NCBI GenBank assembly: GCA_937998305.1 | Contig: CALLDL010000004.1 | Location: 7,103 to 71,102 of the forward strand | Direction: 5' to 3' | Origin: an uncultured Desulfobacterales bacterium | Lineage (GTDB): Bacteria; Desulfobacterota; Desulfobacteria; Desulfobacterales; UBA11574 | Length of the DNA stretch: 64,000 nucleotides | Part shown: piece after piece, positions 30,294 through 47,177 of the stretch | Layout of the letters: each line of letters begins with the position of its first letter | Position numbering within the stretch: the stretch's first letter is position 1 | The notes under the pieces: generated by a model | What the model was told of the DNA's origin: nothing | What the model saw: only the letters and a program-made list of their open reading frames with translations | Database searches by the model: none | Made by a program: the position numbers and the translations under genes

Positions 30294-31265
30294 ATGTTAC
30301 CCATTCGCGACACAATATCTTCCAAAAATTATCCGATTGTAAACAATACAATTATCGGTATCAACGTTGTCCTTTTTCTGTTTGAGATGTCCCAGGGGGC
30401 CCATTTAGACCGTTTTGTTTATATTTACGGCCTGGTTCCCGCCAGATACTCAGTGCCACAAATTGCATCTTATTTTACCACCGGTCAGCAGCTTCTGTCT
30501 TGGCTCTCTTTCATGTTTCTTCACGGCGGGTTCTGGCATCTTCTGGGCAATATGTGGTCTCTTTACATCTTTGGCGATAACGTCGAAGATCGTCTGGGTC
30601 CTTTTCGGTACCTTGTTTTTTATCTGCTGTGCGGCATTACATCGGGTCTTTCCCATCTTCTTTTCAATCTTCATTCCAATATACCCACCATCGGGGCCAG
30701 TGGCGCTATTGCAGGTGTCATGGGGGCTTATTTGATTCTTCATCCCAATTCCAAAATATTAACCTTGATTCCCATTATCTTTATTCCGTGGTTTGTTGAA
30801 GTTCCCGCATTTTTCTTTCTGGGCCTTTGGTTCGTTCTTCAGTTTCTAAATGCGGCAGGCAGCCATGGGAATATTGGCGGAATTGCATGGTGGGCTCATA
30901 TCGGTGGGTTCGTTTTTGGAATCGTTTTGTTAAAGATTTTTCTTGCGTTACCCGAAACCGGGGTTAGCGGTAAAATGCGTCGTGTCACTGCTAAAAGAAA
31001 AACGCACCGCCTTCAGGTTGTTCGGCCCGGCGGCCTTGGAAAAGATCCCCACCTTTATGGAACCATTGACATTACGTCATTCGAGGCGCTTGCAGGAACA
31101 CAAAAACTAATCAATATCCCAAAAGGATTCCAAAAACGGATTGTTAAAGTGATTGTTCCTTCCGGCGTGAAAGAAGGAAGCAAACTGCGTTTAAAAGGCT
31201 TGGGTAAAACAGCATCCGACGGCCAACGGGGAGATTTGTATCTTAAGGTAATGATAACATCTTGA
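30294..31265 (+). CDS. rhomboid intramembrane serine protease fused to a DnaJ C-terminal-like domain
   Basis: Rhomboid catalytic GASGAIAG and AHIGGF. The C-terminal ~80 aa (EALAGTQKLINIP...KLRLKGLGK...RGDLYLKV) look like a DnaJ CTD. Confidence 0.8.
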   Translation: MLPIRDTISSKNYPIVNNTIIGINVVLFLFEMSQGAHLDRFVYIYGLVPARYSVPQIASYFTTGQQLLSWLSFMFLHGGFWHLLGNMWSLYIFGDNVEDRLGPFRYLVFYLLCGITSGLSHLLFNLHSNIPTIGASGAIAGVMGAYLILHPNSKILTLIPIIFIPWFVEVPAFFFLGLWFVLQFLNAAGSHGNIGGIAWWAHIGGFVFGIVLLKIFLALPETGVSGKMRRVTAKRKTHRLQVVRPGGLGKDPHLYGTIDITSFEALAGTQKLINIPKGFQKRIVKVIVPSGVKEGSKLRLKGLGKTASDGQRGDLYLKVMITS

Positions 31266-32492: not shown

Positions 32493-33170
32493 ATGAGTAT
32501 GAATGTGGTGGAAAGGATAGATGAATTTGTTAAGGTCAGGAATGTGCTTGCAAGTGTTTTTGACAAAAGCGGTTTGGAAGCCTTCATACCGGAACTTATC
32601 CGGACAAATCCTGAGATAAAAATTTTTTCAACTGGCGGCACGTACAAAAAAATCAAAGAAATTCTCGGAGACACGGCGGATTCCTGCCTGACACAGGTTT
32701 CGGATTACACGGGTCAGCCGGAAACTCAGGGTGGTCTAGTGAAGACTCTCGATTTTAAGATATATCTCGGACTGCTAACCGAAACCTACAATGACGCCCA
32801 CAATGAAGATATCCGGCGAACAGGTGCTGTTCCCATAGATATGACCCTTTGCAACTTATATCCTTTTAAAGATACCATTTCAACAGCAGGGGTGACGGTT
32901 GAAATGGCTCGCGGTAATATAGATATTGGCGGGCCGTGCATGATAAGAGCGTCTGCAAAAAATTATATAAGGGTTGCATCGGTGGTCGATCCATCGGACT
33001 ATTCGGCGATTTTATCAGAAATGAATTCAAATAACGGCTCTATATCGCTGGGACTTCGCTACCGTCTTGCCCAAAAGGCATTTGACCACACAGCCGTTTA
33101 CGACCGGACCATCGCAGATTTCTTGGGCTCCAAGACAATTGATGAAGTGGCTGGGTGTTACACCTTATAA
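32493..33170 (+). CDS. purH: IMP cyclohydrolase (MGS-like N-terminal module of PurH) as a separate gene
   Basis: VLASVFDKSGL, FSTGGT, GNIDIGGPCMIRASAKN and the linker LAQKAFDHTAVYD all match the PurH N-terminal domain. The ORF stops where the AICARFT domain would begin. Confidence 0.8.
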   Translation: MSMNVVERIDEFVKVRNVLASVFDKSGLEAFIPELIRTNPEIKIFSTGGTYKKIKEILGDTADSCLTQVSDYTGQPETQGGLVKTLDFKIYLGLLTETYNDAHNEDIRRTGAVPIDMTLCNLYPFKDTISTAGVTVEMARGNIDIGGPCMIRASAKNYIRVASVVDPSDYSAILSEMNSNNGSISLGLRYRLAQKAFDHTAVYDRTIADFLGSKTIDEVAGCYTL

Positions 33171-33478: not shown

Positions 33479-34729
33479 ATGGCTGAAGATTTAAAGAAAA
33501 TGTATCGGACAATAATGGACGATCACTTTCCACCTGGGATGGAGATTAGTTTTGTGGATCAGGATAAAAGACAAACCCTTTTTTATGAAAAAGTGGCCTG
33601 GACCATCGATAACATACAAAAAGGGCTCAGATACGGTGAAAATCCGGGTCAGGAAGCCGCACTTTACAAACTGATCAATGGAAATCTGGCTTTAGGAGAA
33701 AGCGAATCGATTCAGCCGGGACAGCATCTGGCTTCAGACATTGAGCTTTTGCAATCCGGCAAACATCCCGGCAAAACCAACCTGACCGATGCAGACAACT
33801 CTATGAACATTTTAAGATATTTTGTGGATAAACCCACAGCTGTCATTGTCAAGCACAACAATCCCTGTGGGGTTGCCCGCTCTGATACATTGGTAGATGC
33901 GTATCTAAAGGCAAACATGGCAGACAGGGTGGCGGCATTTGGAGGATGTATCGCCGTAAACCGGGCTGTAGATCAGGCAACGGCGGAAGCCATCACCGAA
34001 CAATACGCTGAAGTCGTTGTTGCACCCGATTTTGAAGACGGTGTAATGGACATCTTTGCAAAGAAAAAAAACCTCAGGGTGATACGTATCGGTAATATCA
34101 ACAGGCTGCAGAACTTTGTCGGGCAAAGATGTGTGGAATTCAAGAGCCTGATTGACGGCGGTATCATCGCCCAGTGGTCATTTGTGCCGGCAGCCCGGAC
34201 AAAGGCAGATCTAAAACTTGCCGCATGCGATTATAAAGGTAAGCCGTATCAGGTTAACCGAGAGCCCACAGAACAAGAATACAACAACCTGCTCTTTGGA
34301 TGGCTTGTGGAATCCGGCATTACATCCAATTCCGTCATTTATGTCAAAGACGAGGTTACCGTCGGCATCGGTACCGGTGAACAGGACCGGGTGGGTGTTG
34401 CCGAAATTGCAAGGGACAAGGCCTACCGAAAGCTGGCGGACCGTTACTGCTTTGAAATGCATAATATTTCCTATAATGATTTGAAAGATGAAGATAAAAA
34501 AGCAGAAATTGATGCTAAAGTGGCCGATGAAAAAGGCGGACTGATCGGCTCCGCCATGGTCAGTGACGCCTTTTTCCCTTTTAGAGACGGTATTGATGTC
34601 GGCCTGAGAGAGGGGATTACTTCAGTGATTCAACCGGGTGGATCTGAAAATGACTACCAGTCCATCGAGGCCTGTAATGAAGTCGGTGCGACAATGGTCT
34701 ATACAGGGCAGAGAAGTTTCAAACACTAA
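33479..34729 (+). CDS. purH: AICAR formyltransferase (C-terminal module of PurH) as a separate gene
   Basis: LRYGENPGQEAALY, VKHNNPCGVA and the C-terminal QPGGSENDYQ...VYTGQRSFKH. Own RBS AAGGAGAAA. Confidence 0.88.
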   Translation: MAEDLKKMYRTIMDDHFPPGMEISFVDQDKRQTLFYEKVAWTIDNIQKGLRYGENPGQEAALYKLINGNLALGESESIQPGQHLASDIELLQSGKHPGKTNLTDADNSMNILRYFVDKPTAVIVKHNNPCGVARSDTLVDAYLKANMADRVAAFGGCIAVNRAVDQATAEAITEQYAEVVVAPDFEDGVMDIFAKKKNLRVIRIGNINRLQNFVGQRCVEFKSLIDGGIIAQWSFVPAARTKADLKLAACDYKGKPYQVNREPTEQEYNNLLFGWLVESGITSNSVIYVKDEVTVGIGTGEQDRVGVAEIARDKAYRKLADRYCFEMHNISYNDLKDEDKKAEIDAKVADEKGGLIGSAMVSDAFFPFRDGIDVGLREGITSVIQPGGSENDYQSIEACNEVGATMVYTGQRSFKH

Positions 34730-35078: not shown

Positions 35079-36080
35079 TCAAGGTCTTGTGCTGTTCAGC
35101 CCCACAAAGGTACCACCGTTTCTCTGGCATAAAGCGCGCATAAGAGTGGCAAATCGTTCGCCGGTGTTGCCGCGTTGGTTCGTTTGTTCCATAACGACCG
35201 GAAAACCAACGGCATGGATCCGGACCCGACGAGAACCGTCTTTTTCTGTCTTGTTAATTCTGTCCACTTCATTGATGACCGGCTGGATAGCGGAACCGCT
35301 GAATTCATCACCGAATACATAAAGGCTTATTTTTTTATCTTTTGAATAGAACATATTGATCGCGGCGGTAATTCCTTCTACCGGGCTGCTGTTGCTGAAA
35401 GAGTTCCAAGTGCGCAGGGCTGAGATGATGGCCCTGCGCCGGGCCGGGGTGTCCGGTATCCATTTCCCGGCATACTGGGAAAACAGGAAATTTCCCATAT
35501 CGTTCATTATCTGGATGCCTTTGACTTTCGGATAGATTTCGAGCGTCTCCCGCATTTTTTTCTGGACCAGGCTCCAGGCATTTCGCTGCATGCTTCCGGA
35601 TGTGTCGATAATAAAAACGATGTACTCACTGTCCACGGGAATACCACCTACCGAACGGGTTATTTTTTTAGGAAGGCTTTTATAAAGCCGCTTCATTTCT
35701 TCGGTCAGCTCCTGACGTGCAAGGGCCAGTTTGCCTTCAATAATATTTTGAACCATAGCATCGTCTTTGGATCCTGCAAATCGGCCTTTAATCGTCGACA
35801 GATCGCCCTGGAGCCGGGCAAGCTTTTTCTTATCTTTTGACAGCTGAACCTTTTTAGCCGTCAATTCGCGGTTCAGGATTCGGGTGTCACCTTGGATTTC
35901 AAACAGTTCGTTTTCCAGGCGAACAATCTCAGCCTGCATGTTTTCTTTGATTTCTTCAATGACCACCGGTTCAGCAAATTTGGACAGTACAAACAACAGA
36001 ATAATAGCACCGAATCCGCAGCAGATACAGTCAAGAAAGGAAAGGCTGAATATATCTATGTCCCGTCTGTGTTTTTTCAT
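35079..36080 (-). CDS. ExbD/TolR-like TM helix + coiled coil + VWA-domain protein (paralogue 2)
   Basis: N-terminus KKHRRDIDIFSLSFLDCICCGFGAIILLF (basic N-terminus and an Asp inside the TM). Heptad-rich region, then VWA with the MIDAS motif FIIDTSGSM. Confidence 0.75.
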   Translation of the reverse strand: MKKHRRDIDIFSLSFLDCICCGFGAIILLFVLSKFAEPVVIEEIKENMQAEIVRLENELFEIQGDTRILNRELTAKKVQLSKDKKKLARLQGDLSTIKGRFAGSKDDAMVQNIIEGKLALARQELTEEMKRLYKSLPKKITRSVGGIPVDSEYIVFIIDTSGSMQRNAWSLVQKKMRETLEIYPKVKGIQIMNDMGNFLFSQYAGKWIPDTPARRRAIISALRTWNSFSNSSPVEGITAAINMFYSKDKKISLYVFGDEFSGSAIQPVINEVDRINKTEKDGSRRVRIHAVGFPVVMEQTNQRGNTGERFATLMRALCQRNGGTFVGLNSTRP

Positions 36081-36111
36081 AGGGTTAAATCCATGTCATC
36101 CGGCGTTGTCC

Positions 36112-37203
36112 TTACGGCCAGTTTTTCGAGGGACAGAAAAAAGATCCCTTGGTTTTCTTGGCCAAACGCCAATAGACGTCAGCAGCCATGGGATCCCCCT
36201 CCATGGGATAAAGTATGATGTTCACCGGCACCCTTTTAGGCAGTTGCGAAATTGCTTCGTTAAACAGACTTACCCGTTTTTTACTGGAAACCCTTGTTCG
36301 CCATGGCTTGCTGCTTCCCATGGTCGGCAAACCATCGGTAAGTAAAAATATGTTGTCCGGGGTCGGTTTCATCTCGTTGATCGATTTGATCGCGCTTATC
36401 AGACTGGTTCCTTTTTCCGGAACCAGCCGGTACAAACTTTCTGCCGAAAGGTTTAATGGGTCCATCGCGCCGGCATCCAGCCAGGTTCCTTTTGAATGTT
36501 CAAGCAAAGGGCGTGCGGTTTCGTTAAATATGTATATTTGAAATTGACTGGTTGAAGGAAGCTGGGTGATCAGCCAGTTCATGGTTTTCACTGCCTGTTG
36601 CCATTTGGGAGCGCTTATTTTCTGAACATTTTTTAAATTGCGCCGGCGGATAATCCCGACAACGGTTTCATCCAGCATACTGGCTGAGACGTCCAGGAGA
36701 ATAAAGATCCGCTTTCCCCCCATTTTTAAATCCGTAAGGTACTGGCGATCTCCCTGCCCTGGAAACGGGCGCAATCTGGAACCTATGTCATCCTGTGTTT
36801 TGGCCCCGGCTTTCAACCGCCGAAGCTCCTCTTCAAGAGATCTTAAATCATCTTTTAACTTATTGATGTGTGTTTTGCTTGCAAGGGTGTCCTTGTCTCT
36901 ATCCGCCAGTTCAACCTTTTTTTCATTGAGTATTTTTATAATTTCGCGGGATCGTCCCTGTGTGGTCACCAGGTCGGCATCAATTTCAGAAAGGATGTTG
37001 CGAGACTCAACCAGTTTTTTTTTATCGTCCAAAACCTGCTGTTCTATTTTGTTCACTTGAGCACGCAAATCCGACGTTACGGCGTCCCGTCGATGAGCGC
37101 TTTTGGCGTTTACCACGACAAATAAAAGAATAATCGCCCCTAACCCGCAGCAGATGCAGTCAATGAAAGATAAGCTGAATACATTTAATTTTCTACGTTT
37201 CAT
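36112..37203 (-). CDS. ExbD/TolR-like TM helix + coiled coil + VWA-domain protein (paralogue 1)
   Basis: Start set at MKRRKLNVFSLSFIDCICCGLGAIILLF (ATG at 37203, 11-nt overlap with the upstream gene). Coiled coil, then VWA with MIDAS ILLDVSASM and LLTDGLPT. Confidence 0.75.
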   Translation of the reverse strand: MKRRKLNVFSLSFIDCICCGLGAIILLFVVVNAKSAHRRDAVTSDLRAQVNKIEQQVLDDKKKLVESRNILSEIDADLVTTQGRSREIIKILNEKKVELADRDKDTLASKTHINKLKDDLRSLEEELRRLKAGAKTQDDIGSRLRPFPGQGDRQYLTDLKMGGKRIFILLDVSASMLDETVVGIIRRRNLKNVQKISAPKWQQAVKTMNWLITQLPSTSQFQIYIFNETARPLLEHSKGTWLDAGAMDPLNLSAESLYRLVPEKGTSLISAIKSINEMKPTPDNIFLLTDGLPTMGSSKPWRTRVSSKKRVSLFNEAISQLPKRVPVNIILYPMEGDPMAADVYWRLAKKTKGSFFCPSKNWP

Positions 37204-38608
37204 CGGCTTCCAAGCAGGCAATGAGTCGTATGGTTTCTCGGGATGTCCCAAGGCGAACGATTTGGCCAAGTTCGAGTATAGCACTCCCGTTGATCTGTCG
37301 ATTATCTACAAATGTTCCCTGACTGCTGAAGTCCGTTAGAACAATACGGTTATCTTCGCGCTGAACCGTACAATGCTTTTTGGAAACATCGGATGATTTC
37401 GCTTCAACACGAATGCCTTTTCCAAAAGGGTAATGATCGCAGCCGATGATGAGAGGTTTTTCGGAGACGGGATAGGCCACATCGCGATAGAGTAAATGTG
37501 AGGGGTTTATCGTATGGGAGGTTTGATAAGAAATAGCTCGGGAAGTTGTAGATTCTGTCTGCTGCCAGGGACGGCTGGTAAAAAAAGATGCCCCATTTTT
37601 AAAGTGTCGATCGGTCAACGGGTCCCGGAGTTTTAAAACTCCCAGAGCACCGGCTCCGGGTTCGAGTTCAATGATTTTGCAGTTTTCTATTTCTAAAAGT
37701 TTATCCTTTAATCCCGGCAGACAGGCGACTCGATGGGTCGTTTGAAGGACGGTCAAGAGATTGTTTTTACCATGGTCATCTCGCATTTTTTCAATGAATC
37801 GGCAAATTTCATCATATATCTTCTCGCTCTTTTGAAACAATACATCACGCAGAAGAGTAATACGATAAGAATTTTTTCCATGGGATAATTCAAATAAAAA
37901 GGAGGGTTGGTTTTTAAAAATATCAAGGGCAGATGCCAGGCGGTTATAAAGTTCCTGTTCCGTTGCGGCCTGATGAAGGGGATCGAATCTTGTGGCATGA
38001 ACAAATTCTTCAGCAATGGTTTCCACCCAGCTCCGGTATAGCTGTTCCAGGCTAATTTCCTCGAATGTCACCGAGTTTTTCGCTGTTAGATATTCACCCT
38101 GATGAAGATAAGTGATTTCGAATCGGTGCAAATGGATGTCCAGGTGCAACAGCATTGCATTTGGATAAGCGTGATATGATGCGGCTATGGGCAGGGATAC
38201 AAAACCTTTAACGGGTATGGAAAGCTCCTTGGCCATACCCAGAATAAGTCCCAGCTGTTCTTTGCTGTAAAAGTTGGGTACAGCGATGATCATCTCATCG
38301 CCATACTGTTTAACGATTTCCCAGACGTGAAATAGATGGGTGTATGCGATTTCAGCATGATTTTGCGCATGTCGGTTCTTCTGTTTTAAAGGTTCCGTAT
38401 TCAATTGATCCCAGAATCTGTTGATGACTTGAAGTGGAAAGAGGTGTGCCTTGTCTGATGCCGGTTTTCCGACGAGCAGACGCTCTTTTTCCGGTATGGC
38501 GAATCCGGGACTTTCTTGTTCCTGTCCGTCAACGGTTAACAATCTTATTGGATTGTCCCCGGCAACCAGGATTCCGGAATCGGCGAGTTCAAGCCCTAAA
38601 AGTGTCAT
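37193..38608 (-). CDS. degenerate Hsp70/actin-fold protein with a C-terminal divergent FHA domain
   Basis: Hsp70-like order of segments (LGLELADSG; AVPNFYSKEQLGLILGMAKELSIPVKGFVSLPIAAS; LHLDIHLHRFE) with the nucleotide-binding glycines lost. C-terminus has VSKKH..LTDFSSQGTFVDN, FHA-like. Confidence 0.65.
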   Translation of the reverse strand: MTLLGLELADSGILVAGDNPIRLLTVDGQEQESPGFAIPEKERLLVGKPASDKAHLFPLQVINRFWDQLNTEPLKQKNRHAQNHAEIAYTHLFHVWEIVKQYGDEMIIAVPNFYSKEQLGLILGMAKELSIPVKGFVSLPIAASYHAYPNAMLLHLDIHLHRFEITYLHQGEYLTAKNSVTFEEISLEQLYRSWVETIAEEFVHATRFDPLHQAATEQELYNRLASALDIFKNQPSFLFELSHGKNSYRITLLRDVLFQKSEKIYDEICRFIEKMRDDHGKNNLLTVLQTTHRVACLPGLKDKLLEIENCKIIELEPGAGALGVLKLRDPLTDRHFKNGASFFTSRPWQQTESTTSRAISYQTSHTINPSHLLYRDVAYPVSEKPLIIGCDHYPFGKGIRVEAKSSDVSKKHCTVQREDNRIVLTDFSSQGTFVDNRQINGSAILELGQIVRLGTSRETIRLIACLEADET

Positions 38609-38721
38609 TTGTTCACCCTGTCAAATGGATTTTTTGGTATAAATTCATGGTATATGGTCACGAGGAGGCACACCCCGTGACCACCGTATCGTGTCGAAAG
38701 ATGCCATTTCTGGATGGACAC

Positions 38722-39525
38722 TCATTGTGTATGCAAATGCCTGGTCAATCTCTCTTCACAATATGCTTCTGTTTCCAAGACATATCTTTCCTGAAGCAGC
38801 TGCAGCTGGTGCAGCATAAACATGAGAACAATGCTGATAAGAAGCGCGATCAAAGTTGAGTTAAACGCTACCCCCAGGCTGCGGGTAACACCGAAAATTT
38901 CTCCTTCAATGGCCTGATGCGCCAGCCCAAGTGCATCTCCAATGCCTCGTACCGTGCCGATAAATCCGATGGAGGGAATGGCCCAGGCAATATATCTAAT
39001 CATGGACAATTCAGATTCCAATCGTTCACCTTCGGCCGAACAGTAGGCATGGGTTGCATCTGCGACATCCTGAATATTTTTTGTTGAACTAAATCTTTGC
39101 AAACCGGCCAGCAATGCTCTGGGAAGCAACCCGTTTTGTTGATACGTCGGCAGTGCTTGAATTTCCCGGGACAGTTCCCGGGTATCTTCAGGCAATATAC
39201 GAACCCCTTCGGCTAAAGGAATCAAACCCTGTTGTAACAGCGAACGGTGTCTTATGGTGGTAACAGCCTTAAACGCCATTATGGCCAGCGCCCAAAACAT
39301 GAGAACAAAACAGGCTTCTTGCTCATAATCGCGGATCAACACATAGGCAGAACGTTCGGTTGTTTGCGTTTTGTCTTTTTGGAGCATCTCAGCCTGACGG
39401 GTCAGAATGGCGTCGGCATTTGGACGAATGATGCCGACGTAAACGGCATGAACAAAAATGATAATCAGAATCAGAGAGAAAAGCTGGTAAATAAACTCCA
39501 TGGATATCGGTAATGTTTTTTTCAT
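38722..39525 (-). CDS. MotA/TolQ/ExbB-family proton-channel protein
   Basis: 267 aa with three TM segments. AIPSIGFIGTVRGIGDAL fits the G..GTV.GI signature, followed by GVAFNSTLIALLISIVLMF. Confidence 0.8.
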   Translation of the reverse strand: MKKTLPISMEFIYQLFSLILIIIFVHAVYVGIIRPNADAILTRQAEMLQKDKTQTTERSAYVLIRDYEQEACFVLMFWALAIMAFKAVTTIRHRSLLQQGLIPLAEGVRILPEDTRELSREIQALPTYQQNGLLPRALLAGLQRFSSTKNIQDVADATHAYCSAEGERLESELSMIRYIAWAIPSIGFIGTVRGIGDALGLAHQAIEGEIFGVTRSLGVAFNSTLIALLISIVLMFMLHQLQLLQERYVLETEAYCEERLTRHLHTQ

Positions 39526-39570
39526 AGTGAATTCTCGATGTTGATTTTACTTGCTAATAAGTAAATTAGA

Positions 39571-39788
39571 TACTCGACATACCCTTACCAAAGGAAATGT
39601 AACCGAAGCCTTCTCACAAGTGCCTAAAGTTTGAAGTGAATTAAAGTGCCTAAAGTTGAGGTAGCGCTAGCGCGCTGTCATTAAAATATAATTGGCTAAA
39701 AATTTCCTCAACTTTATCTCACTTTAGCCACTATTAACTATTTCTGTTTTAATATCAAAGTCAGCATATCAGTAAAAAATGTCGAGTA
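39571..39788. repeat. family E inverted-repeat element inside the cluster
   Basis: 10-bp termini TACTCGACAT / ATGTCGAGTA. Internal direct repeat AAGTGCCTAAAGTT x2 pairs with CCTCAACTTTATCTCACTTTAGCCAC. Central palindrome AGCGCTAGCGCGCT. Confidence 0.6.
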
Positions 39789-39862
39789 GGATTTGTACTT
39801 CTTAGTAAAAAAGTTTTCCGGTCTGCAACGCGTTGTTGGCGACGGATTCGAAACTAAAAGTG

Positions 39863-40195
39863 TCAGATATCGTATGGAAAATCAACACCCTGATCTGCCG
39901 GAATCGTTTCTGACGGAACGAACGGTTTTACCGGTTTTGTCTTTTTGGGAACATTTTTCTCTTGTGTCAACGTCTTTGGTTTGTTTGTATCTTTATGGGT
40001 TTTTGAGGCATTATCAACGGAAACATTGTTCGACGGTTTTTTGGGGTCATTTTGGGCAAAATAGGTTGATCCTGAATGTTGTCCGAGCGGTACGTTTAAT
40101 TCATAAAAGAATCCTGTCGGCACAGTTCCTGCCCATGTCGCTCCAAAAAGACATGTCCCCAATAAAGCAATTGCTATAAAAAATCTGTTTACCAT
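39863..40195 (-). CDS. small secreted/anchored Lys/Pro-rich protein
   Basis: Start at MVNRFFIAIALLGTCLFGATWA (signal or anchor), 2 nt after the upstream stop. K/P-rich spacer KPKTLTQEKNVPKKTKPVKPFVP. C-terminus ADQGVDFPYDI. Confidence 0.55.
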   Translation of the reverse strand: MVNRFFIAIALLGTCLFGATWAGTVPTGFFYELNVPLGQHSGSTYFAQNDPKKPSNNVSVDNASKTHKDTNKPKTLTQEKNVPKKTKPVKPFVPSETIPADQGVDFPYDI

Positions 40196-40197
40196 GG

Positions 40198-42309
40198 TCA
40201 TTTCAAATATCTGCAAACCCGAAAACCGACATCCTCACGTTTGTCATCACCGTAACTGCGATAGGCCAGTCTCAAGGTGTTGATACTTCCATGTTTCCAG
40301 CTGGATCCTCTGATCACATGGTGTTTACCGTTTTTGGGTCCGGTTGGGTCCACATATGTTTTTTCGGGATCATAACTGTAAATTGAATAAAAATCGTGAC
40401 ACCATTCTGCTACGTTACCGCCCATATCATACAACCCCAGGGTATTGGATTTAAATTTTGCCGGCGGAGCTGTTGTTACATATTCGTCATTGTAACCTTC
40501 GAGAACGGTGGGAAGCAAGTTTTTTGCGGATTGATCCAAATAATTTCCGGATAGTTGAACGGGAGGAAATTTGTTTCCCCATGGATATTTCGAAAATGCA
40601 TGTTTACCGGTAAACCGGGCACAGTACTCCCACTCTGCTTCGGTAGGCAGCCTGTAACCGGTATTTAACGGCTCGACGGCAGTCAACGTGTTCCCTTTTT
40701 TAACATAAGCCGGTGGCAGTGACGCTTTGGCGCTGAGCCAGTTGCAGAACCGGGCAGCCTGTTCCCAGGTGACTCGAACCGCGGGCTGGGCAGAATTGTT
40801 CAGACTCTGTGATTGAAAAAAGCCTGAATTGTGTTTGGCCAAAAATTCCTTGAATGCGTGGTTGGATACTTCTTTAAGGCCCATGTAAAACGGCCGTTTT
40901 AGTATGACCTTTCTAAGGGTTTCATTGGATCTGTGACCCTGTTCTCTGCGTGAAGATCCCATGGTGTAGGACCCGGGCTGGATTAATTTCAATCTGTAGC
41001 CTGTTTGAGTTGTAATCACCAGCGGTTCAGTTTCTTTGGACGCCCCCTTTTTCTTGAGCGCAACTTTCAATTGTTTTGGAAACCCGGGTTGGGGGGTGAT
41101 GCGGATTCCATAGGGATGAAAGCCTTTTTTATTGAATTCCAGTTTGTGTTCCACGGCGATCAGATTTAATTTTTTCGGAACAATGCCCCATGATTTGCCG
41201 TCTATTATCAGTTTGGTGTCGGGCGGTTCAACCGACAGGTGGACGATACCTCGTTTGGGTTTTAAATTCACATTGAGCTGTTTTGGTGCAGCCGATACAA
41301 CTTGTACGTTACGGTTTGTTTTTTTATAACCGGCCTTTGAAATTTGAACAACATGATGTTTGTCCGGAGAAAGATCGAGTGTCAGCGGTGTCTGACCGAC
41401 AAAAGCCCCGTCAATTATGATATTGGCTCCGGCGGGTTTGGTTTTGATCGTCAATTTGCCGTCTGCCGGCTGAAGCCGTACGTCTTTTATTTCTTGGGGT
41501 TCATTCAATTTTACATCCAGATGGTGTTTCCATGTTTTAAAACGATCGGCACTGATCTCAAGAAGATAAGACCCAGGCGACAGTTGAGTGTGTAAAGGGG
41601 TTTTCCCGAAGGATTTTCCGTCGATCAAAACATTTGCGTCCAAAGGCACGGAACTGACAATGATATCCGACCAACCCGGAAGCAGCGCCAGGTTAAACTC
41701 CTGAAATTTGTCACAGCCATGCACGGTAACATCGGTCTGAAAGTTTTGATAATTCTCGGCACCAATTTCAATTTTGTGCAGACCCGGCAGTATTTCAAGA
41801 TTCTCTATGGGGGTGTTTCCAACCACAGTACCATCGATATATACTTGTGCGCCTAAAATGTTACTTTCTGTATCACCCGAATCATAGGCGCGAATCATCA
41901 GGCGACCGGGACGTTCTTGCATCTTTAGACGCAGGTTCTGCCGTTTTTCATCGCTGACCCAAAATGTATGGTCAAGGGGTAAAAAACATTCTCTGAGAGC
42001 CTCCATCGTGTATTTTCCGGGACGCATCAAGTAATAGTTCCCGATTTTCGGTGTCAGGATACTCCCTGAAAACACAATACGTTCCGGAACCGGCTCGATG
42101 TCTATCACTACCTGACGGGCAGTGAAGACAAACCAGGTCGAGAGACAAAGAAAAATCAGGACGATTCCAATAAGAACGCCGACAACCCATTTAAAAATGA
42201 TAAACGGCTTTGGTCTTTTAGATGGCGGCTTGGACCGAAAGGATATCGGTTCGATTTTTATAGGCGTTTTCTCTCCACCGTTGTTTTGGATTGTGTCTGT
42301 CAATGTCAC
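40198..42309 (-). CDS. membrane-anchored PEGA-repeat protein with a C-terminal FGE-sulfatase (SUMF1-like) domain
   Basis: One TM (FIIFKWVVGVLIGIVLIFLCL), 4-5 PEGA-like repeats (e.g. VLIDGKSFGKTPL..LSPGSYLLEISADRFK), then RVTWEQAARFCNWLS, GYRLPTEAEWEY, GLYDMGGNVAEWC and IRGSSW. Confidence 0.85.
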   Translation of the reverse strand: MTLTDTIQNNGGEKTPIKIEPISFRSKPPSKRPKPFIIFKWVVGVLIGIVLIFLCLSTWFVFTARQVVIDIEPVPERIVFSGSILTPKIGNYYLMRPGKYTMEALRECFLPLDHTFWVSDEKRQNLRLKMQERPGRLMIRAYDSGDTESNILGAQVYIDGTVVGNTPIENLEILPGLHKIEIGAENYQNFQTDVTVHGCDKFQEFNLALLPGWSDIIVSSVPLDANVLIDGKSFGKTPLHTQLSPGSYLLEISADRFKTWKHHLDVKLNEPQEIKDVRLQPADGKLTIKTKPAGANIIIDGAFVGQTPLTLDLSPDKHHVVQISKAGYKKTNRNVQVVSAAPKQLNVNLKPKRGIVHLSVEPPDTKLIIDGKSWGIVPKKLNLIAVEHKLEFNKKGFHPYGIRITPQPGFPKQLKVALKKKGASKETEPLVITTQTGYRLKLIQPGSYTMGSSRREQGHRSNETLRKVILKRPFYMGLKEVSNHAFKEFLAKHNSGFFQSQSLNNSAQPAVRVTWEQAARFCNWLSAKASLPPAYVKKGNTLTAVEPLNTGYRLPTEAEWEYCARFTGKHAFSKYPWGNKFPPVQLSGNYLDQSAKNLLPTVLEGYNDEYVTTAPPAKFKSNTLGLYDMGGNVAEWCHDFYSIYSYDPEKTYVDPTGPKNGKHHVIRGSSWKHGSINTLRLAYRSYGDDKREDVGFRVCRYLK

Positions 42310-43934
42310 ACCTTAATGTTACAAATTATGGATACGCGCAACGATGTCTGGCCGGGTTTCACGGTGATTTTCAGCCGGACATCCTGGTATCCGTTGCGTG
42401 AGCCGACCACGGTGTACGTGCCGGGTCTTAGCGATAATTCGCGAAAGGTAAATTTGCCGAGTTTTCCGATTTTATAAACGGCGATTTCCGTAAGGTTATC
42501 AGACTCGATTATCACTTTAACAGGAGTTCCGGCGATATCCACCAAGGTTTTTAGCTCGTTTAATCGGGCGTTTAAATGTGTGCCCCTTTGTTCCAGTTTC
42601 TCGGCCTCCTCGATCAAACGTATCGCATTTTCAAGCTGCCGGTCCGATTCCATGACGTCGGGTTTTTCAAGAAAAAATGCAATTCGTTTAGCAACCTGAA
42701 TGTGTTCCAAAGAGCGTTTTTTACCCTGGACGGCAAAACTGATATTAGGATCAATTTTAAGAACTGTCAGATAAGATTTAAGGGCCTGTTCCCAATTTTC
42801 AGCCTGTTCGGCAGACATTGATTTTTGGCGAAGTTTTTCAATTTTATCTAACCGGATGGCCTCGTCAACCTGCAATAAAGCGCTTTTTACTTCACGTGAT
42901 TGGGGTTGGAAAGATTTTGCCTTTAAAAGCGTTGTTCTGGCGAGTTGATAATGGCCATTGTGATATGCCGTCAGCCCATCCGACATGAGTTTCTGAAACT
43001 GTTCGTCGACGATTTTTTCTTTCATCCGGATTAAGCCGTTTTGAGCTTCCCTGGATTCAGGGTCCAATTGCAGTGCCCTCTGAAAATCGGCATGTGCAAA
43101 AGCAAACCGATTATTTTCTTCATGGTTTTTCCCCGATTTTACCAGACGGTTCACTTCATCAAGCTTCTTGGCCCGTTCCAAATTCCGCCGGGCGGATTCA
43201 TCTGACGGTTGAATCTTTAAAGCCGTAGAAAATTTTTGTTGGGCAATGACACTGTCACCATTTTCAAGAGCCTTCTGACCTTCGTCTGTCAGTTTTTGAA
43301 ACACGGTTCCGGTGTTACTGATCAACTCTTTTGCTATATTGGCGGCTTGAGCATATTTTTCAGCTGCAGCAGAAAACGAACGATCCAAAAGCAGCCGGTC
43401 TCCTTCTTCGCTGAGGGCTGTCATGGTTTCATATTCTTCACCACCCCATACGGAACCCTCTTTTTCTTCTATCTCATTTTTAAGTTTCAATAACTTTGCC
43501 AATTCCTTGTCTGCCGTTTCTTTTTCCCGTTCAAATTTGGCAGTGTCGACGGTTTGCATTGATTTAATCGCTGGTTGTCGCTCTAGGGGAACGAAAACCG
43601 GTTCTGTCGTGGTGCCGACCCGCTCTTTGTTTGTCTTGGGAACATTCAAATCCTGTTTTTTTAAAATCCCGGTTTCCGAAGATTCTGTATGTTCCGTGTT
43701 TTTAGCCAGATTCACCGGATGTTTTGATAAATGGCGAATAAGAAAAAGACCCCCTGTCACCATTGAAGTAAGAATGATGAGAAGCAATAAAACGGTGATA
43801 GAGGTTATTCGAAAAGAGCGATCCGAGTCAGGCTGGTCATTCCCTTGGTGCACCTCAAGGGGCGTGATTATTTCCACGCCAAAATCTGAAGCCTCTTTAC
43901 CTTGAGGAGGTTGAGTGGGTGTGTCGGACGGCAT
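42306..43934 (-). CDS. membrane-anchored TPR-repeat protein with a C-terminal PEGA-like domain
   Basis: TM ITVLLLLIILTSMVTGGLFLI and several TPR-like A..F..AL...P repeats. The C-terminus LRPGTYTVVGSRNGYQDVRLKITV is PEGA-like. 4-nt overlap with the downstream gene. Confidence 0.75.
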   Translation of the reverse strand: MPSDTPTQPPQGKEASDFGVEIITPLEVHQGNDQPDSDRSFRITSITVLLLLIILTSMVTGGLFLIRHLSKHPVNLAKNTEHTESSETGILKKQDLNVPKTNKERVGTTTEPVFVPLERQPAIKSMQTVDTAKFEREKETADKELAKLLKLKNEIEEKEGSVWGGEEYETMTALSEEGDRLLLDRSFSAAAEKYAQAANIAKELISNTGTVFQKLTDEGQKALENGDSVIAQQKFSTALKIQPSDESARRNLERAKKLDEVNRLVKSGKNHEENNRFAFAHADFQRALQLDPESREAQNGLIRMKEKIVDEQFQKLMSDGLTAYHNGHYQLARTTLLKAKSFQPQSREVKSALLQVDEAIRLDKIEKLRQKSMSAEQAENWEQALKSYLTVLKIDPNISFAVQGKKRSLEHIQVAKRIAFFLEKPDVMESDRQLENAIRLIEEAEKLEQRGTHLNARLNELKTLVDIAGTPVKVIIESDNLTEIAVYKIGKLGKFTFRELSLRPGTYTVVGSRNGYQDVRLKITVKPGQTSLRVSIICNIKV

Positions 43935-44015
43935 AGTTGAACGTCTCGGAAATTCTACAACCTAATGAAATTATAGATTAAATTTTGAGGCTTGAGCGCT
44001 TGCCTCGAATATAGA

Positions 44016-44166
44016 ATAATGGAATGGTGGAATACTGGAAGGTTGGTTTTTAAAAGGATATTATCTGTTTTTAGTTTTATCGTTATCACAAATTTTACCA
44101 TTAACCCAACATTGCATTATCCCAGAATCCATTATTCCATAATTCCAGCATTCCACCATTCCAATT
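44016..44166. repeat. family F inverted-repeat element
   Basis: Arms ATAATGGAATGGTGGAATACTGGAA (44016-44040) and TTCCAGCATTCCACCATTCCAATT (44143-44166). Lies in the gap between two cluster genes. Confidence 0.6.
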
Positions 44167-44203
44167 GTGAGCGAAGCGAACTAAGTTCATTTGATGCTCG
44201 ATT

Positions 44204-45436
44204 TTATTCTGAGCCTTCGGATGTTGTCTTTTCTTTATGTTCCGATGAGATATCCGGATCAAAGCCGGTTTCTGTGATATATATCTGTCGCAGCAATTCG
44301 CGCCAGTGTTTAAATTGTTCTTCGGCGGTTCCGGTCAGCTCATACTGCTTGCCTTCGAATTCCATGACAACGGGCTGCATTTCACTGCCAAACGATTCGC
44401 TCAACTCCTTGATTGCTGCCGAGTGGATTTCAGCTTCTTTAGTAACATTAAACCCGTTGACGATCACCTGGCCGCCGATTAAAATCATACTCATCTGAAG
44501 CGCGCCGGTGTTGTTGACTTCTCCCGCATTCAGTGCAATAGCACCTGCCAGTAGCAACATGCCGACCAACTTTTGATTTAAGGCGTTACGTTTAATCTCC
44601 TTGATAGCCTTAATTTCTTCATAGTTGAGCTTGCGCCAGTTCTCATAAGAAGACCAAATATTTGCATAATATTCTTCATAATACTCATTCAAGGTGTCCA
44701 CATACATGTATTCCCGCTCCCGTATCTTTAGCAGACGGATCATTATGGTGTCTTCATCGGCAGGCAGGCGATTGACGGCGATGAGATTTTTTTTATCTTT
44801 GGTCAGATATCCATTGTAGACGGATGGCGCAAAGTCTTGTGCAAATTTTAATTTCGAGACGGTACGGATGTTCTTGATCTCTTCAGGGGGCAGCTTCACG
44901 AGATAAGTGGCGATATCATTGGAGATGGTATTGTATAGATCCTGATACACATCTTTTTCTCCGGCTCGATTTCCCGAATAGAATGCCAGAGAGGCTTCGG
45001 ATTTATATTTTTTGCTGAACCAGGTTTTCCGGGTCGCATCCGTCACATCGATTTGAAGTATCAAGTGCTCTCCGTTGGATTCAAGAACTTTACCTTTGAC
45101 CAGAACGTCGATACTTTCCGTTTTACCTGGAAGGGCACGCACTGCGCCCCAATAGCTGCTTTGCTGCATGGTGCTTTTCAAATGATACGGCATGAAATGA
45201 CGTTCTGCTTTTCTGATTTCTTGACTGGTATGTTCTTCTTTGGCTTGCTCTTCTGTAATTTTGTCGGATTCAAAAACCAGGATGCCGACATCGAGCAGTT
45301 GCTCTTCTAAGATTTCTTCTTTGGCTTTCATTATTGTCGTAGGACCGACCTTTTGAGCATTAAAGGTGGCACATCCTGTGAACAAAATTAAAATCAAAAT
45401 CATTAATAAGAGGTTATGATGAACGCTAAATCTCAT
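44204..45436 (-). CDS. lipoprotein of unknown function with a C-terminal Gly-rich hydrophobic segment
   Basis: Start set at MRFSVHHNLLLMILILILFTGC (lipobox LFTGC). Late segment LVGMLLLAGAIALNAGEVNNTGALQMSMILIGGQVIVNG. Confidence 0.6.
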   Translation of the reverse strand: MRFSVHHNLLLMILILILFTGCATFNAQKVGPTTIMKAKEEILEEQLLDVGILVFESDKITEEQAKEEHTSQEIRKAERHFMPYHLKSTMQQSSYWGAVRALPGKTESIDVLVKGKVLESNGEHLILQIDVTDATRKTWFSKKYKSEASLAFYSGNRAGEKDVYQDLYNTISNDIATYLVKLPPEEIKNIRTVSKLKFAQDFAPSVYNGYLTKDKKNLIAVNRLPADEDTIMIRLLKIREREYMYVDTLNEYYEEYYANIWSSYENWRKLNYEEIKAIKEIKRNALNQKLVGMLLLAGAIALNAGEVNNTGALQMSMILIGGQVIVNGFNVTKEAEIHSAAIKELSESFGSEMQPVVMEFEGKQYELTGTAEEQFKHWRELLRQIYITETGFDPDISSEHKEKTTSEGSE

Positions 45437-45458
45437 CTTAGCACACACTTTAATGGCC

Positions 45459-46352
45459 TTACTTGCGCACATTTTTTTTATATTGTTCATATTCTTTCCA
45501 GAGCTTTTCCTTAAGTTCAGGATCGGATTCTTTTTCTGCCGCTTCGCGAAGCTGTCTGGCCACGATGTCATCATCTTCAGGGTCGTAACGATTTTTAGGA
45601 TGTCGTTGGGAACCTTCCGCTCCTTCCCGGGATTTGTCTTTATCAGTCAATGTGGTGTCATCCCTGCCTTCTTCAGAGTTATTTTCCTTTCCGGCTTCTA
45701 GGCCGCTTTTTTCTTTTTCGGTTTCTTTCGGTTCTTCGGATGAATCCTGACGGGAATCAGCGGTTTCTGCTTTTGAATCGGTATCTATCTCGATGCCCTT
45801 GTCACGCAGGCGTTGTGCCGCAGCTGCAGCCTCTTGGGCCAGATCCTGCAGTTTTTCTGATGATTTTGTCTGGATCAAATCCAATTCCTCGAGCAGCATC
45901 TCATCGAACTCGGCCAGGGAACGGTCGAGTTGGCGGTCCAAGACGGTTACTTTGTCAACTACCTGTTCCTCGGGAATGGAAGGGTCCAGCATCGCGGAAG
46001 TATCATCAGAAGATGATGCCCCGTAAGTTGCTTTTCGGGTATTATATTTAGCGCTAAGTGCTTCCAATTTATCCACTTTTTCCCGGTTTTCAGCAACCAT
46101 GGCCTGCACTCGAATTAAGTACGTATTATAATCTTTTATGATATCCGGTAATATATCCTCGGATTTTTTTAACTTTTCCAGCTCAAAAGAGATGCGTTCC
46201 TCGGTGGCCATACTGATACGTAAATCCTTGCGTGCCGATTCAAGGGCCGATTCAATTTTTTGCATCGAGGCAGCATATAGGCTGGTAGACAGCACAAGCA
46301 ATAACACTTTGGCCAGAATAACTTTCCACCATTTGGGATCGTTTATGATCAT
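45459..46352 (-). CDS. secreted coiled-coil / acidic low-complexity protein
   Basis: Signal-like VILAKVLLLVLSTSLYA, heptad-rich middle and an acidic S/E/K tract. Conserved-looking C-terminus DDDIVARQLREAAEKESDPELKEKLWKEYEQYKK. Confidence 0.55.
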   Translation of the reverse strand: MIINDPKWWKVILAKVLLLVLSTSLYAASMQKIESALESARKDLRISMATEERISFELEKLKKSEDILPDIIKDYNTYLIRVQAMVAENREKVDKLEALSAKYNTRKATYGASSSDDTSAMLDPSIPEEQVVDKVTVLDRQLDRSLAEFDEMLLEELDLIQTKSSEKLQDLAQEAAAAAQRLRDKGIEIDTDSKAETADSRQDSSEEPKETEKEKSGLEAGKENNSEEGRDDTTLTDKDKSREGAEGSQRHPKNRYDPEDDDIVARQLREAAEKESDPELKEKLWKEYEQYKKNVRK

Positions 46353-47177
46353 TATTGAAACCCGTTCGTTTTGAAATCATAAAATGTATCTGAAAATAAT
46401 AAAAAATTACATTTGCATTTGCTAAATATAAGAAATTTGAGGAGTTGTGTCAAGATGCGCGAGGTTTTGCCTCGGGTAGTGGATCAATTTGGGTAAAAAA
46501 GGATAAGTATATAATAGTGAGGTATTGGTAAGTAAACACAAAGTTTGAATCCATCAAGCTTGGGGCTTACTCAATTAGATATCACAAGGGAAAAAGAATA
46601 AAATTAGAATATAGAGATTGCATCCCGCATGATTAAAAAGCTTTTCATTTTATCAATTTTCATTAATATCATATTATCGTCATTTTTTGCGGTATATTCA
46701 TATAAAAGGGGAGGAATTTCATATATTTCAAAAAGAGTATTCTCAAGTGAGACAAAAGCAAATAATTCACCCAAACCGTTGTTAAAAAAATACTATAATG
46801 TAGATTTCTGACTTAAACTTTCAATTCAGACCATCCTATTATGCTTTTAAATTTGCCGAAAAATTTCACTTCGAAACCTTGAAAAACTGCTGAGACTGTC
46901 GAAAAAGTTTAATTAATGCATTTTTGTGAAATTTGCATATAATAATATCAATCACTAAAAAATCTACTAAGAACCCTTTTTGATTTATTGTGAATTTTGG
47001 GATATAGGTCAATATGGGACGATGATGATATGTTAACTTTTTCGTCTTCTCAAAATAAATTCAGCACAACCGGAGGCTGAGAAGAAGGGAAAATTGACTT
47101 AAAAGTGAATAATTAATAATCAAGATGCAACCCTGGATGCTTCTCAAGGACTATTTAAATGAAAAGGGGACAGTCAA

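Follow-up and report, generated by a model that had tools for sequence, protein, structure and literature searches.

A stretch of 64,000 nucleotides (nt) from an uncultured Desulfobacterales bacterium (GenBank assembly GCA_937998305.1, contig CALLDL010000004.1, positions 7,103 to 71,102 of the forward strand), termed here the window, carries nine co-directional genes, g1 to g9, on its minus strand (46352..35079). The seventh of these, g7, encodes a protein that is very probably an Hsp70-derived pseudo-ATPase fused to a non-canonical FHA domain, serving as a subunit of a TolQ/TPH-vWA operon, a motor class named for its TolQ-like channel and for vWA proteins anchored by a trans-pore helix (TPH). 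The gene had been placed at the same position by an earlier reading of the letters alone (the original prediction), which proposed an Hsp70/actin fold with eroded nucleotide-binding motifs joined to an unusual FHA domain. The open reading frame (ORF) was recovered as described, at 471 amino acids (aa), with a Shine-Dalgarno-like element, GGGTGA, 6 nt 5ʹ of its start. The features of g7 are as follows.

37193..38608, minus strand: g7, the Hsp70 nucleotide-binding-domain-like/FHA protein, an ATG-started ORF of 471 aa
37565..38608, minus strand: Hsp70-type nucleotide-binding-domain-like fold, aa 1-348, ending in a conserved SFFTSRPW strand segment (AlphaFold2 model, Foldseek, profile)
38573..38602, minus strand: phosphate-1 equivalent LLGLELADSG (aa 3-12), opposite IIGIDLGTTN (hhalign register)
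38117..38152, minus strand: phosphate-2 equivalent LLHLDIHLHRFE (aa 153-164), opposite AVYDLGGGTFD (family columns)
37712..37747, minus strand: adenosine-motif equivalent LQTTHRVACLPG (aa 288-299), opposite ILVGGQTRMP (family columns)
37505..37564, minus strand: variable linker of low model confidence, aa 349-368 (variable alignment columns)
37214..37504, minus strand: FHA domain, aa 369-465 (Pfam, model, FHA matches among PDB sequences)
37439..37444, minus strand: G389-C390 (in IIGCD), at the canonical Gly-Arg position (residue counts)
37373..37384, minus strand: S409-K-K-H412, the S-x-x-H motif, kept (residue counts)
37316..37321, minus strand: Q430-G431, at the canonical Asn-Gly position (residue counts)
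37193..37203, minus strand: overlap of 11 nt, in which g7 ends (..D-E-T-stop) and g8 begins (ATG AAA CGT AG.), shared sequence ATGAAACGTAG

More than 838 homologues of g7 were found at E ≤ 1e-3. When 1.84 billion cluster representatives were scanned by HMMER with the N-terminal domain alone, at least 1,402 clusters (50% identity) passed the same threshold, most of them of 440-480 aa. In a cluster look-up and a profile search, distant relatives are labelled as unnamed metagenomic proteins or as 'FHA domain-containing protein'. Two alignments were used in the comparisons that follow: A1 holds 30 g7 homologues of 51-100% identity, and A2 is a profile of 134 of these cluster representatives at 26-50% identity. 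Motif columns of the N-terminal domain were counted over 141 family representatives (26-53% identity), and FHA residues over the 127 representatives that have the domain. Among the nine operon proteins, g7 alone has no hydrophobic segment in its hydropathy profile, and it is therefore predicted to be cytoplasmic.

By sequence search alone, the N-terminal domain is all but invisible. The first ~375 aa of g7, searched on their own, gave no match in Pfam, NCBIfam, PADLOC or PDB sequences (phmmer), and neither HSP70 nor any actin-like Pfam family was found at E ≤ 0.1 in g7 or in 97 family members. The AlphaFold2 model of g7 (mean predicted local distance difference test score, pLDDT, 79.9; predicted template modelling score 0.67) has a two-lobed alpha/beta domain from aa 1 to ~348, a disordered stretch at aa 350-365 (pLDDT below 50) and then an 11-strand beta-sandwich. 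When this model was compared with the PDB by Foldseek, the top 50 matches were all members of the Hsp70 family (DnaK, Ssb, Ssz1, BiP and Hsp110), with E-values from 2e-17 to 4e-15. Targets consisting of the nucleotide-binding domain (NBD) alone gave target-normalised template modelling scores of 0.69-0.79 and root-mean-square deviations of 3.5-5 Å; for the DnaK NBD (6w6e_I), 355 columns were aligned to its 357 residues, with a score of 0.79 and a deviation of 3.5 Å. Subdomain IB is shortened in g7 and modelled with low confidence, and the identity of g7 to Hsp70s in the structural alignments is 10-15%.

The broad profile leads to the same family. Searched against PDB sequences, A2 matched Hsp70s and nothing else outside the FHA domain (DnaK, E = 0.002; Cryptosporidium Hsp70, E = 0.004; Ssb1, E = 0.012-0.016), and these matches are weak overall (E 0.002-0.1). 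Additionally, hhalign of A1 against the DnaK NBD set the motif pairs in the expected register, the one proposed in the original prediction for three of them, and paired the IIB signature TRFDPLH with RNDPLA; at a probability of 5.8%, this alignment supports the register and counts as no independent evidence of homology. On the strength of the structure search and the broad profile, the N-terminal domain is assigned to the Hsp70 branch of the actin fold, not to a non-actin fold, and is an Hsp70-lineage NBD that no Pfam or NCBIfam model covers.

With the NBDs of DnaK, Ssb and BiP, g7 shares the four-subdomain actin-like fold, the order of the motif segments and the IIB signature, and the non-cycling Hsp70 Ssz1 is among its top Foldseek matches. 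In Hsp70s, the NBD and linker are followed by a peptide-binding beta-sandwich, and g7 has the same arrangement with an FHA domain. Unlike Hsp70s, g7 lacks the Gly loops for ATP, the catalytic Lys and Glu, the substrate-binding domain (SBD) and the lid, the FHA domain standing in place of the SBD. The protein is not filed as an Hsp70, although it has the fold, because no Hsp70 sequence model recognizes it and both the catalytic motifs and the SBD are missing.

What has become of the ATP site is evident from the family columns. At phosphate 1, E7 is kept in 116 of 141 representatives, D10 in 135/135 and G12 in 118/141, so that the family reads E-L-[N/S]-D-A-G where DnaK has D-L-G-T-T-N. At phosphate 2, the counts of 141 are 130 for D157, 71 for H159 (with Gln in a further 39), 135 for L160, 136 for H161 and 115 for R162, giving D-x-H/Q-L-H-R versus D-L-G-G-G-T. 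The adenosine motif shows S/T291, H292 (91), R293 (121), P298 (131) and G299 (136), or S-H-R versus the G-G-Q-T-R of DnaK. The Gly-rich phosphate-2 loop (GGG) and the adenosine GG occur in 0/141 representatives, as do the catalytic Glu and Lys: the position of E171 holds Ala, Ser or Leu, and the strand that bears K70 is an alignment gap relative to DnaK, the segment having been deleted. Since no member has the Gly-rich loop, canonical ATP binding appears to be lost across the whole family, and the pseudo-ATPase reading of the original prediction is borne out to that extent.

The same prediction described the motifs as eroded. Loss of the canonical residues is indeed what the columns display, whereas the word itself misleads: D10, D157, H161, R162 and R293 are 82-100% conserved, above most of the protein. 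Because these replacement residues are under strong constraint, the site looks re-purposed rather than eroded, with a new conserved function or conformation of the cleft. This level of conservation also effectively refutes the notion of a decaying, functionless Hsp70 remnant, to which we assign practically no chance. Such a remnant would account for the loss of every canonical catalytic motif; against it stand the intact reading frame, full-length conservation over at least 1,400 clusters (50% identity), dozens of positions that are invariant or nearly so among members of 26-50% identity, and strict synteny in every sampled lineage.

The pattern of replacement points to a cleft that is either fixed in a closed form by Asp/Arg salt bridges or rebuilt as a new ligand site with His and Asp. 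If the latter, E7, D10, D157, H159, H161, R162 and R293 might together bind a metal ion, phosphate or polyphosphate, or a phosphopeptide, and g7 would be a sensor or an enzyme. The high conservation of the replacement residues is in keeping with this, and the set includes an H-x-H pair and acidic residues, a common type of metal site. However, the clustering of these residues in the cleft is placed by homology to Hsp70 positions, salt bridges that lock the lobes together would account for the Arg/Asp pairs just as well, and no relative in Pfam or the PDB shows a site of this kind. We consider a ligand-binding sensor or enzyme quite improbable.

The C-terminal domain is recognized more readily. 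Pfam FHA (PF00498) matches aa 404-454 with E = 3.1e-9 and 37.6 bits against a cut-off of 20.7, and there is a weak match to Yop-YscD_cpl, the FHA-like cytoplasmic domain of YscD from the type III secretion system (T3SS). Among 97 relatives of g7, 53 match the FHA model and 48 match Yop-YscD_cpl weakly. The modelled domain comprises 11 beta-strands over aa 371-463 (pLDDT 67-90), and its best-conserved feature is a P-T-H motif just ahead of strand 1, H371 being present in 126/127. The residues quoted in the original prediction, LGLELADSG, AVPNFYSKEQ... and LHLDIHLHRFE in the N-terminal domain and IIGCD, SKKH and QG in the FHA domain, are all there, and so is the reason for its doubt about phosphothreonine binding. 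The Gly-Arg position has Gly in 92/127 and Arg in 21/127, with Ala, Thr, Ser, Val, Gln, Leu or Cys otherwise. In the S-x-x-H motif, Ser is found in 72/127 and His in 78/127 across the wide family, and both reach at least 90% in the close subfamily (A1). At the Asn-Gly position, Gly is present in 77/127 and Asn is rare, the commonest residue being Tyr (36), then Ala (13) and others. Thus, most homologues have neither the Arg nor the Asn of a canonical FHA domain; that of g7 qualifies by sequence model and by fold, with less than the full set of residues for binding phosphothreonine.

The genes on either side of g7 indicate the setting in which it works.

38722..39525, minus strand: g6, MotA/TolQ/ExbB-type proton channel, 267 aa (Pfam MotA_ExbB, PF01618, E = 9.4e-14)
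38953-38955 and 38854-38856, minus strand: channel residues T191 and T224 of g6, 100% conserved in 75 sequences
36112..37203, minus strand: g8, transmembrane (TM) Asp, coiled coil and VWA domain, 363 aa (Pfam VWA_3, VWA_2)
37159-37161 and 36679-36693, minus strand: D15 and the metal ion-dependent adhesion site (MIDAS) D171-x-S-x-S of g8, 100% conserved in 71 sequences
35079..36080, minus strand: g9, TM Asp, coiled coil and VWA-like domain, 333 aa (weak Pfam VWA matches)
36030-36032 and 35592-35606, minus strand: D17 and MIDAS D159-x-S-x-S of g9, 100% conserved in 69 sequences

The proteins g8 and g9 are paralogous (E~1e-13), and each has a single TM helix, FSLSF[IL]DCICCG.GAIILLF, that holds the conserved Asp, with a cytoplasmic tail of only ~10 residues. 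Neither these nor the other operon proteins match the ExbD, TolR or MotB families in Pfam or NCBIfam, and assignment of the g8 and g9 N-termini to the ExbD/TolR Pfam family was dropped for that reason. A class of TolQ-like genes has been described (Mol Biol Evol 2025, PMC12204202 section 8) that are in close linkage with genes for TM-tethered vWA proteins, the latter in heterologous pairs. In these TPH-vWA proteins, the Asp that binds the proton lies in the 'trans-pore helix', which is predicted to occupy the inside of the pentamer. Given the invariant TM Asp and this description, g8 and g9 are likely to be motor B subunits. The original prediction had g7 lying between the channel gene and the VWA genes, which is correct; with the flanking VWA genes read as B subunits, it does more than adjoin them and lies inside the motor module. 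The present family is inferred to be the TPH-vWA family of PMC12204202, whose description it matches: the two share a TolQ/MotA gene without an adjacent tolR or exbD, two TM-Asp VWA proteins and the channel Thr residues. That paper is silent on Hsp70-like and FHA genes (the term 'Hsp70' is absent, and 'FHA' turns up solely within FhaC), and likewise on a PEGA/FGE-sulfatase protein and a nine-gene operon.

Within this module, g7 is joined to g8 by the 11-nt overlap, which is real and recurs at the same length in a 52%-identical relative (L001); in another (L085) it is 8 nt. The C-terminal codons of g7, GAT GAA ACG TAG, double as the start of g8 (M-K-R). The conserved C-terminal D-E-T of g7 was considered as a docking motif and set aside, dual coding with the g8 start codon being the simpler explanation; its conservation may reflect the constraint of the overlap and not a functional tail. 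Co-production of g7 and g8 through the conserved overlap, as originally suggested, is plausible.

Translational coupling to g8 is also what a role in assembly would predict. As a holdase-like Hsp70 relic, g7 could escort the pore helices of g8 and g9, or the cytoplasmic tails of the membrane proteins g3 and g4, during membrane insertion, and would then stand outside the finished machine. Its Hsp70 ancestry fits, as does its evolving faster than the motor core. However, g7 has no Hsp70 SBD and no ATP cycle, the operon encodes no J-domain or GrpE partner, and the cytoplasmic tails of g8 and g9 are short. An assembly chaperone is accordingly given a very low probability, below that of a ligand sensor.

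The cytoplasmic tails of g3 and g4 provide the most specific candidates for binding partners.

42306..43934, minus strand: g3, cytoplasmic tail, one TM helix (aa 48-66), coiled coil, TPR and C-terminal PEGA-like domain, 542 aa (Pfam TPR)
43851..43877, minus strand: g3 tail motif V-E-I-I-T-P-L-E-V (aa 20-28), [EK]-[IVFT]-I-[TSAV]-P-[LIVQR] across lineages
40198..42309, minus strand: g4, cytoplasmic tail, one TM helix (aa 36-54), four PEGA domains and an FGE-sulfatase domain (GldK/PorK-like), 703 aa (Pfam PEGA 1e-45 and FGE-sulfatase 2.3e-43; NCBIfam GldK 3.5e-38, below its cut-off)
42235..42261, minus strand: g4 tail motif I-K-I-E-P-I-S-F-R (aa 17-25), [IV]-x-P-[IVL]-x-[FYI]-[RHK] 5ʹ of the TM helix in 47/50 tabulated orthologues

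Both motifs are conserved in all lineages and, aligned on the Pro, look alike, reading I-[T/E]-P-[L/I]-x-[V/F]-R. The g3 motif also bears on the source of a phosphorylation signal. A phmmer search (E ≤ 10) of all ORFs in the 64-kb window found no Hanks-type kinase, and the original statement that no Ser/Thr kinase is encoded nearby holds to that extent. In several other lineages, however, the orthologous operon has such a kinase joined to the TPR protein: an N-terminal Ser/Thr kinase is part of g3 in L044, L083 and L085 (Pkinase E 1e-25 to 1e-43), is present as a split gene in L001, and is recognized by homology in L043, L047, L048 and L059. Apparent kinases in L049 and L037 were rejected as artefacts of an over-long ORF or a shared tail. 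The fusions keep the g3 motif between the kinase and the TM helix, and the juxtamembrane stretch of a kinase is the usual place for an autophosphorylated Thr. Because of these fusions, the FHA domain may descend from, or still act in, a phosphothreonine circuit. The Thr of the g3 motif is kept in 19/20 loci in which the FHA S..H pair is intact versus 9/15 with a degenerate FHA domain, a covariation that is suggestive at Fisher p = 0.027 with no phylogenetic correction. In kinase lineages, g4 usually gains an N-terminal domain of ~120 aa with weak FHA or Yop-YscD_cpl matches (Pfam, E 0.01-0.09). This FHA-like extension is seen in L043, L044, L047-L050, L059, L079, L083, L085 and L004/L022, a few of them kinase-free, and the IEPxxFR-type motif is kept after it.

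Motor control could also operate without these tails. The NBD-like domain might bind the large loop of the g6 pentamer as a brake or clutch, in the manner of FliG, YcgR or FlgX on MotA, while the FHA domain responds to phosphorylation by a kinase whose gene lies elsewhere in the genome; the g3 and g4 tails would then play no part. The position of g7 directly between g6 and g8 and its coupling to g8 favor such an arrangement, and g6 has a loop of ~88 aa (aa 90-177), lying past its second hydrophobic segment and ahead of the GTVRG helix, that is probably cytoplasmic and was named as the partner in the original prediction. Moreover, in M. xanthus the TM-adjacent FHA domain of GltG is predicted to touch the pentamer formed by AglR (PMC11761067). 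The window has no kinase to send the signal, however, and the FHA Arg that would help to read it is absent; the similar cytoplasmic motif kept in both bitopic proteins would be left unexplained. A brake or clutch of this kind is unlikely, less so than a ligand sensor.

The protein most resembles in function, by analogy, two groups of subunits from other envelope machines: the actin-fold adaptors PilM and GspL, and the FHA scaffolds of the T3SS, the type VI and type VII secretion systems (T6SS, T7SS) and GltG. PilM of the type IV pilus, the cytoplasmic domain of GspL in the type II secretion system and FtsA are adaptors with an actin fold that sit on the cytoplasmic side of envelope machines. 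Adaptors of the PilM type are encoded in the operon of their machine and hold the conserved N-terminal tails of bitopic partners, as PilM does with PilN. PilM binds ATP, and the cytoplasmic domain of GspL is without nucleotide binding. Like PilM and GspL, g7 is predicted to be cytoplasmic, is encoded in the operon, and has two bitopic partners with conserved N-terminal motifs; that it binds these tails is hypothetical. Unlike PilM, FtsA and GspL, g7 is structurally closest to Hsp70 (the Foldseek top 50) and has an added FHA domain. As in g7, a cytoplasmic FHA domain, often with degenerate phosphothreonine-binding residues, is associated with an envelope machine in YscD/PrgH (T3SS), EssC (T7SS), Fha1/TagH (T6SS) and GltG, and EssC is among the weak PDB matches of the A2 profile. 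In those proteins the FHA domain is part of a membrane protein or stands alone, whereas in g7 it is fused to an Hsp70-like domain.

Two larger assemblies have a similar set of parts. The Agl-Glt gliding machine of M. xanthus combines a TolQ-like pentamer and two different TolR-like subunits (AglR5-QS) with cytoplasmic FHA domains, MreB as a cytoplasmic platform of actin fold, TPR proteins and a VWA protein (PMC11761067). Compared by domain types alone, the present operon has the same kinds of parts. In Agl-Glt, however, the VWA protein is an outer-membrane adhesin and not a B subunit, and MreB is a true ATPase filament; furthermore, nothing in the present data indicates that the operon drives motility. 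The threonine-phosphorylation pathway of the P. aeruginosa T6SS (PpkA-PppA-Fha1-TagR) comprises a Hanks kinase, an FHA protein, a periplasmic VWA protein and a periplasmic protein of the FGE-sulfatase fold. Relative to that circuit, the present operon has a similar domain set and is centred on a motor; it has no T6SS genes, no PP2C phosphatase was seen, and the kinase is absent from the window.

Taken with the tail motifs, these likenesses suggest a PilM-like role for g7, as an adaptor or regulator that works without nucleotide at the cytoplasmic side of the motor machine, a statement we regard as evenly balanced between true and false. As the sole cytoplasmic subunit of a nine-gene, envelope-spanning machine, it would serve a motor driven by the g6 proton channel, with g8 and g9 as the inner B subunits and their VWA domains in the periplasm. 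The conserved Glu/Asp/His/Arg set would fill its phosphate loops and adenosine motif, the two lobes probably forming a fixed, nucleotide-independent clamp, and the flexible linker would join this clamp to an FHA domain with a weakened phosphothreonine pocket. Through the FHA domain, the NBD-like cleft or both, g7 may dock onto the juxtamembrane motifs IITPL of g3 and IEPxxFR of g4; alternatively, or in addition, it may bind the cytoplasmic loop of g6. Docking would hold the PEGA/FGE-sulfatase protein and the TPR protein, both of which span the periplasm, on the g6 pentamer, and g7 would thereby couple or gate the motion that protons drive in the VWA dimer. Where the g3 of a relative bears a Hanks kinase beside IITP, phosphorylation of the Thr would tune this docking; in the lineage of the window, which has lost the kinase and has Cys in place of the FHA Arg, binding would be constitutive. 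The fold, the loss and conserved replacement of the canonical motifs, the FHA residue pattern, the synteny, the motor features, the tail motifs and the kinase fusions are observed; all the protein-protein contacts in this scheme, and the functional output of the machine, are ones that we infer, and the adaptor mechanism in its specifics is held tentatively, at rather less than even chances.

Several observations weigh against an adaptor of this kind. Over 52 loci, mean identity to the window is 78% for g6, 77% for g9, 69% for g8 and 54% for g7; being the fastest evolving of the four motor-module genes, g7 is more likely to be peripheral or regulatory than part of the core mechanics. A complete operon (L080) has a g7 of 370 aa (L080:9995-11107) without the FHA domain; tblastn found no FHA remnant there, and the overlap of g7 with g8 is 4 nt. 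Since this operon is complete without it, and about one tenth of g7 representatives are only ~350 aa long, the FHA domain is an accessory module, not essential to core function, and the NBD-like domain the constant core. Nor does the FHA Arg track the kinase, as kinase-bearing lineages have Leu, Ser or Gln at that position and also Arg. The conserved His/Asp/Arg cleft could bind a ligand, which makes 'nucleotide-independent' a proposal, and the tail motifs could bind something outside the operon.

A bolder form of the adaptor proposal is that the Hsp70-derived domain is a new cytoplasmic partner (clutch, torque acceptor or signal gate) of a non-flagellar 5:2 proton motor, its rebuilt His/Asp/Arg pocket sensing a ligand or the phosphorylated IITP tail. 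This we think improbable, about as much so as the brake on the g6 loop. Were it true, a periplasmic machine driven by protons and tipped with VWA domains would be turned on and off by Ser/Thr phosphorylation or by a metabolite, and a chaperone ATPase fold would have found use in a rotary motor as a regulatory subunit free of nucleotide.

The ion-driven 5:2 motors (MotAB, ExbBD, TolQR, GldLM, ZorAB and AglRQS) are a fast-moving field in which the cytoplasmic partners of the non-flagellar members are largely unknown, and g7 is a concrete, conserved candidate for such a partner in the recently proposed TolQ/TPH-vWA class. The operon widens what was a two- or three-gene motor module to nine genes, adding PEGA/FGE-sulfatase, TPR and lipoprotein components and, in some lineages, kinase input. 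With regard to the evolution of the Hsp70/actin fold, the family is a large one in which the whole ATP site appears to have been exchanged for other conserved residues and the SBD replaced by an FHA domain. In practical terms, a family model could annotate thousands of proteins now called 'FHA domain-containing' or hypothetical, and the residues and peptides named above are defined objects for tests.

The literature search found no paper on this operon or on an Hsp70-like/FHA protein with MotA/ExbB and VWA. While the motor class was published recently, the Hsp70-like/FHA subunit, the rebuilt pocket, the nine-gene operon and the tail motifs are without description in the literature found. The vWA conflict systems of Kaur et al. 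2020 (PMC7159879) were considered and rejected, having a different context and no motor, and a Ferrigenium preprint proved to have no bearing on the operon. Anti-phage defence of the Zorya type was likewise rejected: the only defence model matched in PADLOC was ZorA, with E = 0.011, which is explained by the MotA fold that the two have in common.

The remaining genes and signals of the operon are these.

46425..46453, minus strand: sigma-70-like promoter match TTGACA-17-TATATT, 11/12, ~70 nt upstream of g1 (consensus match only)
45459..46352, minus strand: g1, first operon gene, signal sequence, coiled coil and acidic region, 297 aa (syntenic in all loci long enough)
44204..45436, minus strand: g2, predicted lipoprotein (LFTGC), 410 aa from M47 of its ORF (no family match in Pfam or NCBIfam)
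39863..40216, minus strand: g5, small exported protein with an N-terminal hydrophobic segment, 117 aa (no family match; homologue in most loci)

The position of the promoter match is consistent with an operon that starts at g1, and no terminator-like site was found 3ʹ of g9 on the minus strand. The ORF of g2 spans 44204-45574, and its first ATG is probably not the start, since the homologues are 410 aa long. These number more than 2,200, all unnamed. A Gly-rich hydrophobic stretch can be read from the sequence near aa 335-375 of the ORF; the AlphaFold2 model of g2 is poor (pLDDT 43.6), the listed homologues all being at least 74% identical.

The order g1-g9 is the same in all 83 related loci from GTDB genomes and metagenomes that are long enough to show it, and it persists where identity in g7 is only ~30%. 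Most of these loci come from Desulfobacterales metagenome-assembled genomes (MAGs); others are labelled Planctomycetota (including Ca. Kuenenia), Acidobacteriota, Nitrospinia and Gammaproteobacteria. In one MAG labelled 'uncultured Nitrospinaceae' (L005, CAXMTB010000016.1), the operon proteins are 85-96% identical to those of the window, and the other close relatives of the window operon are all Desulfobacterales or Thermodesulfobacteriota, which suggests mis-binning, a wrong label or recent transfer. Two loci have interrupted genes: g7 is split into two ORFs at L051:10001-11393, and g2, g3 and g4 are fragmented in L078. These breaks could be frameshifts or assembly errors in those MAGs, or pseudogenization.

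Elsewhere in the 64-kb window, there are no tRNA genes and no Rfam family reaches its gathering score. On the plus strand, the ORFs at 32493-33170 and 33479-34729, ~300 nt apart, look by eye like the two halves of PurH, the IMP cyclohydrolase/MGS-like part and the AICAR transformylase part. The ORF at 30294-31265, also on the plus strand, presumably encodes a rhomboid-like membrane protein, with a C-terminal extension that to the eye resembles the DnaJ C-terminal beta-domain (..GDLYLKV..).

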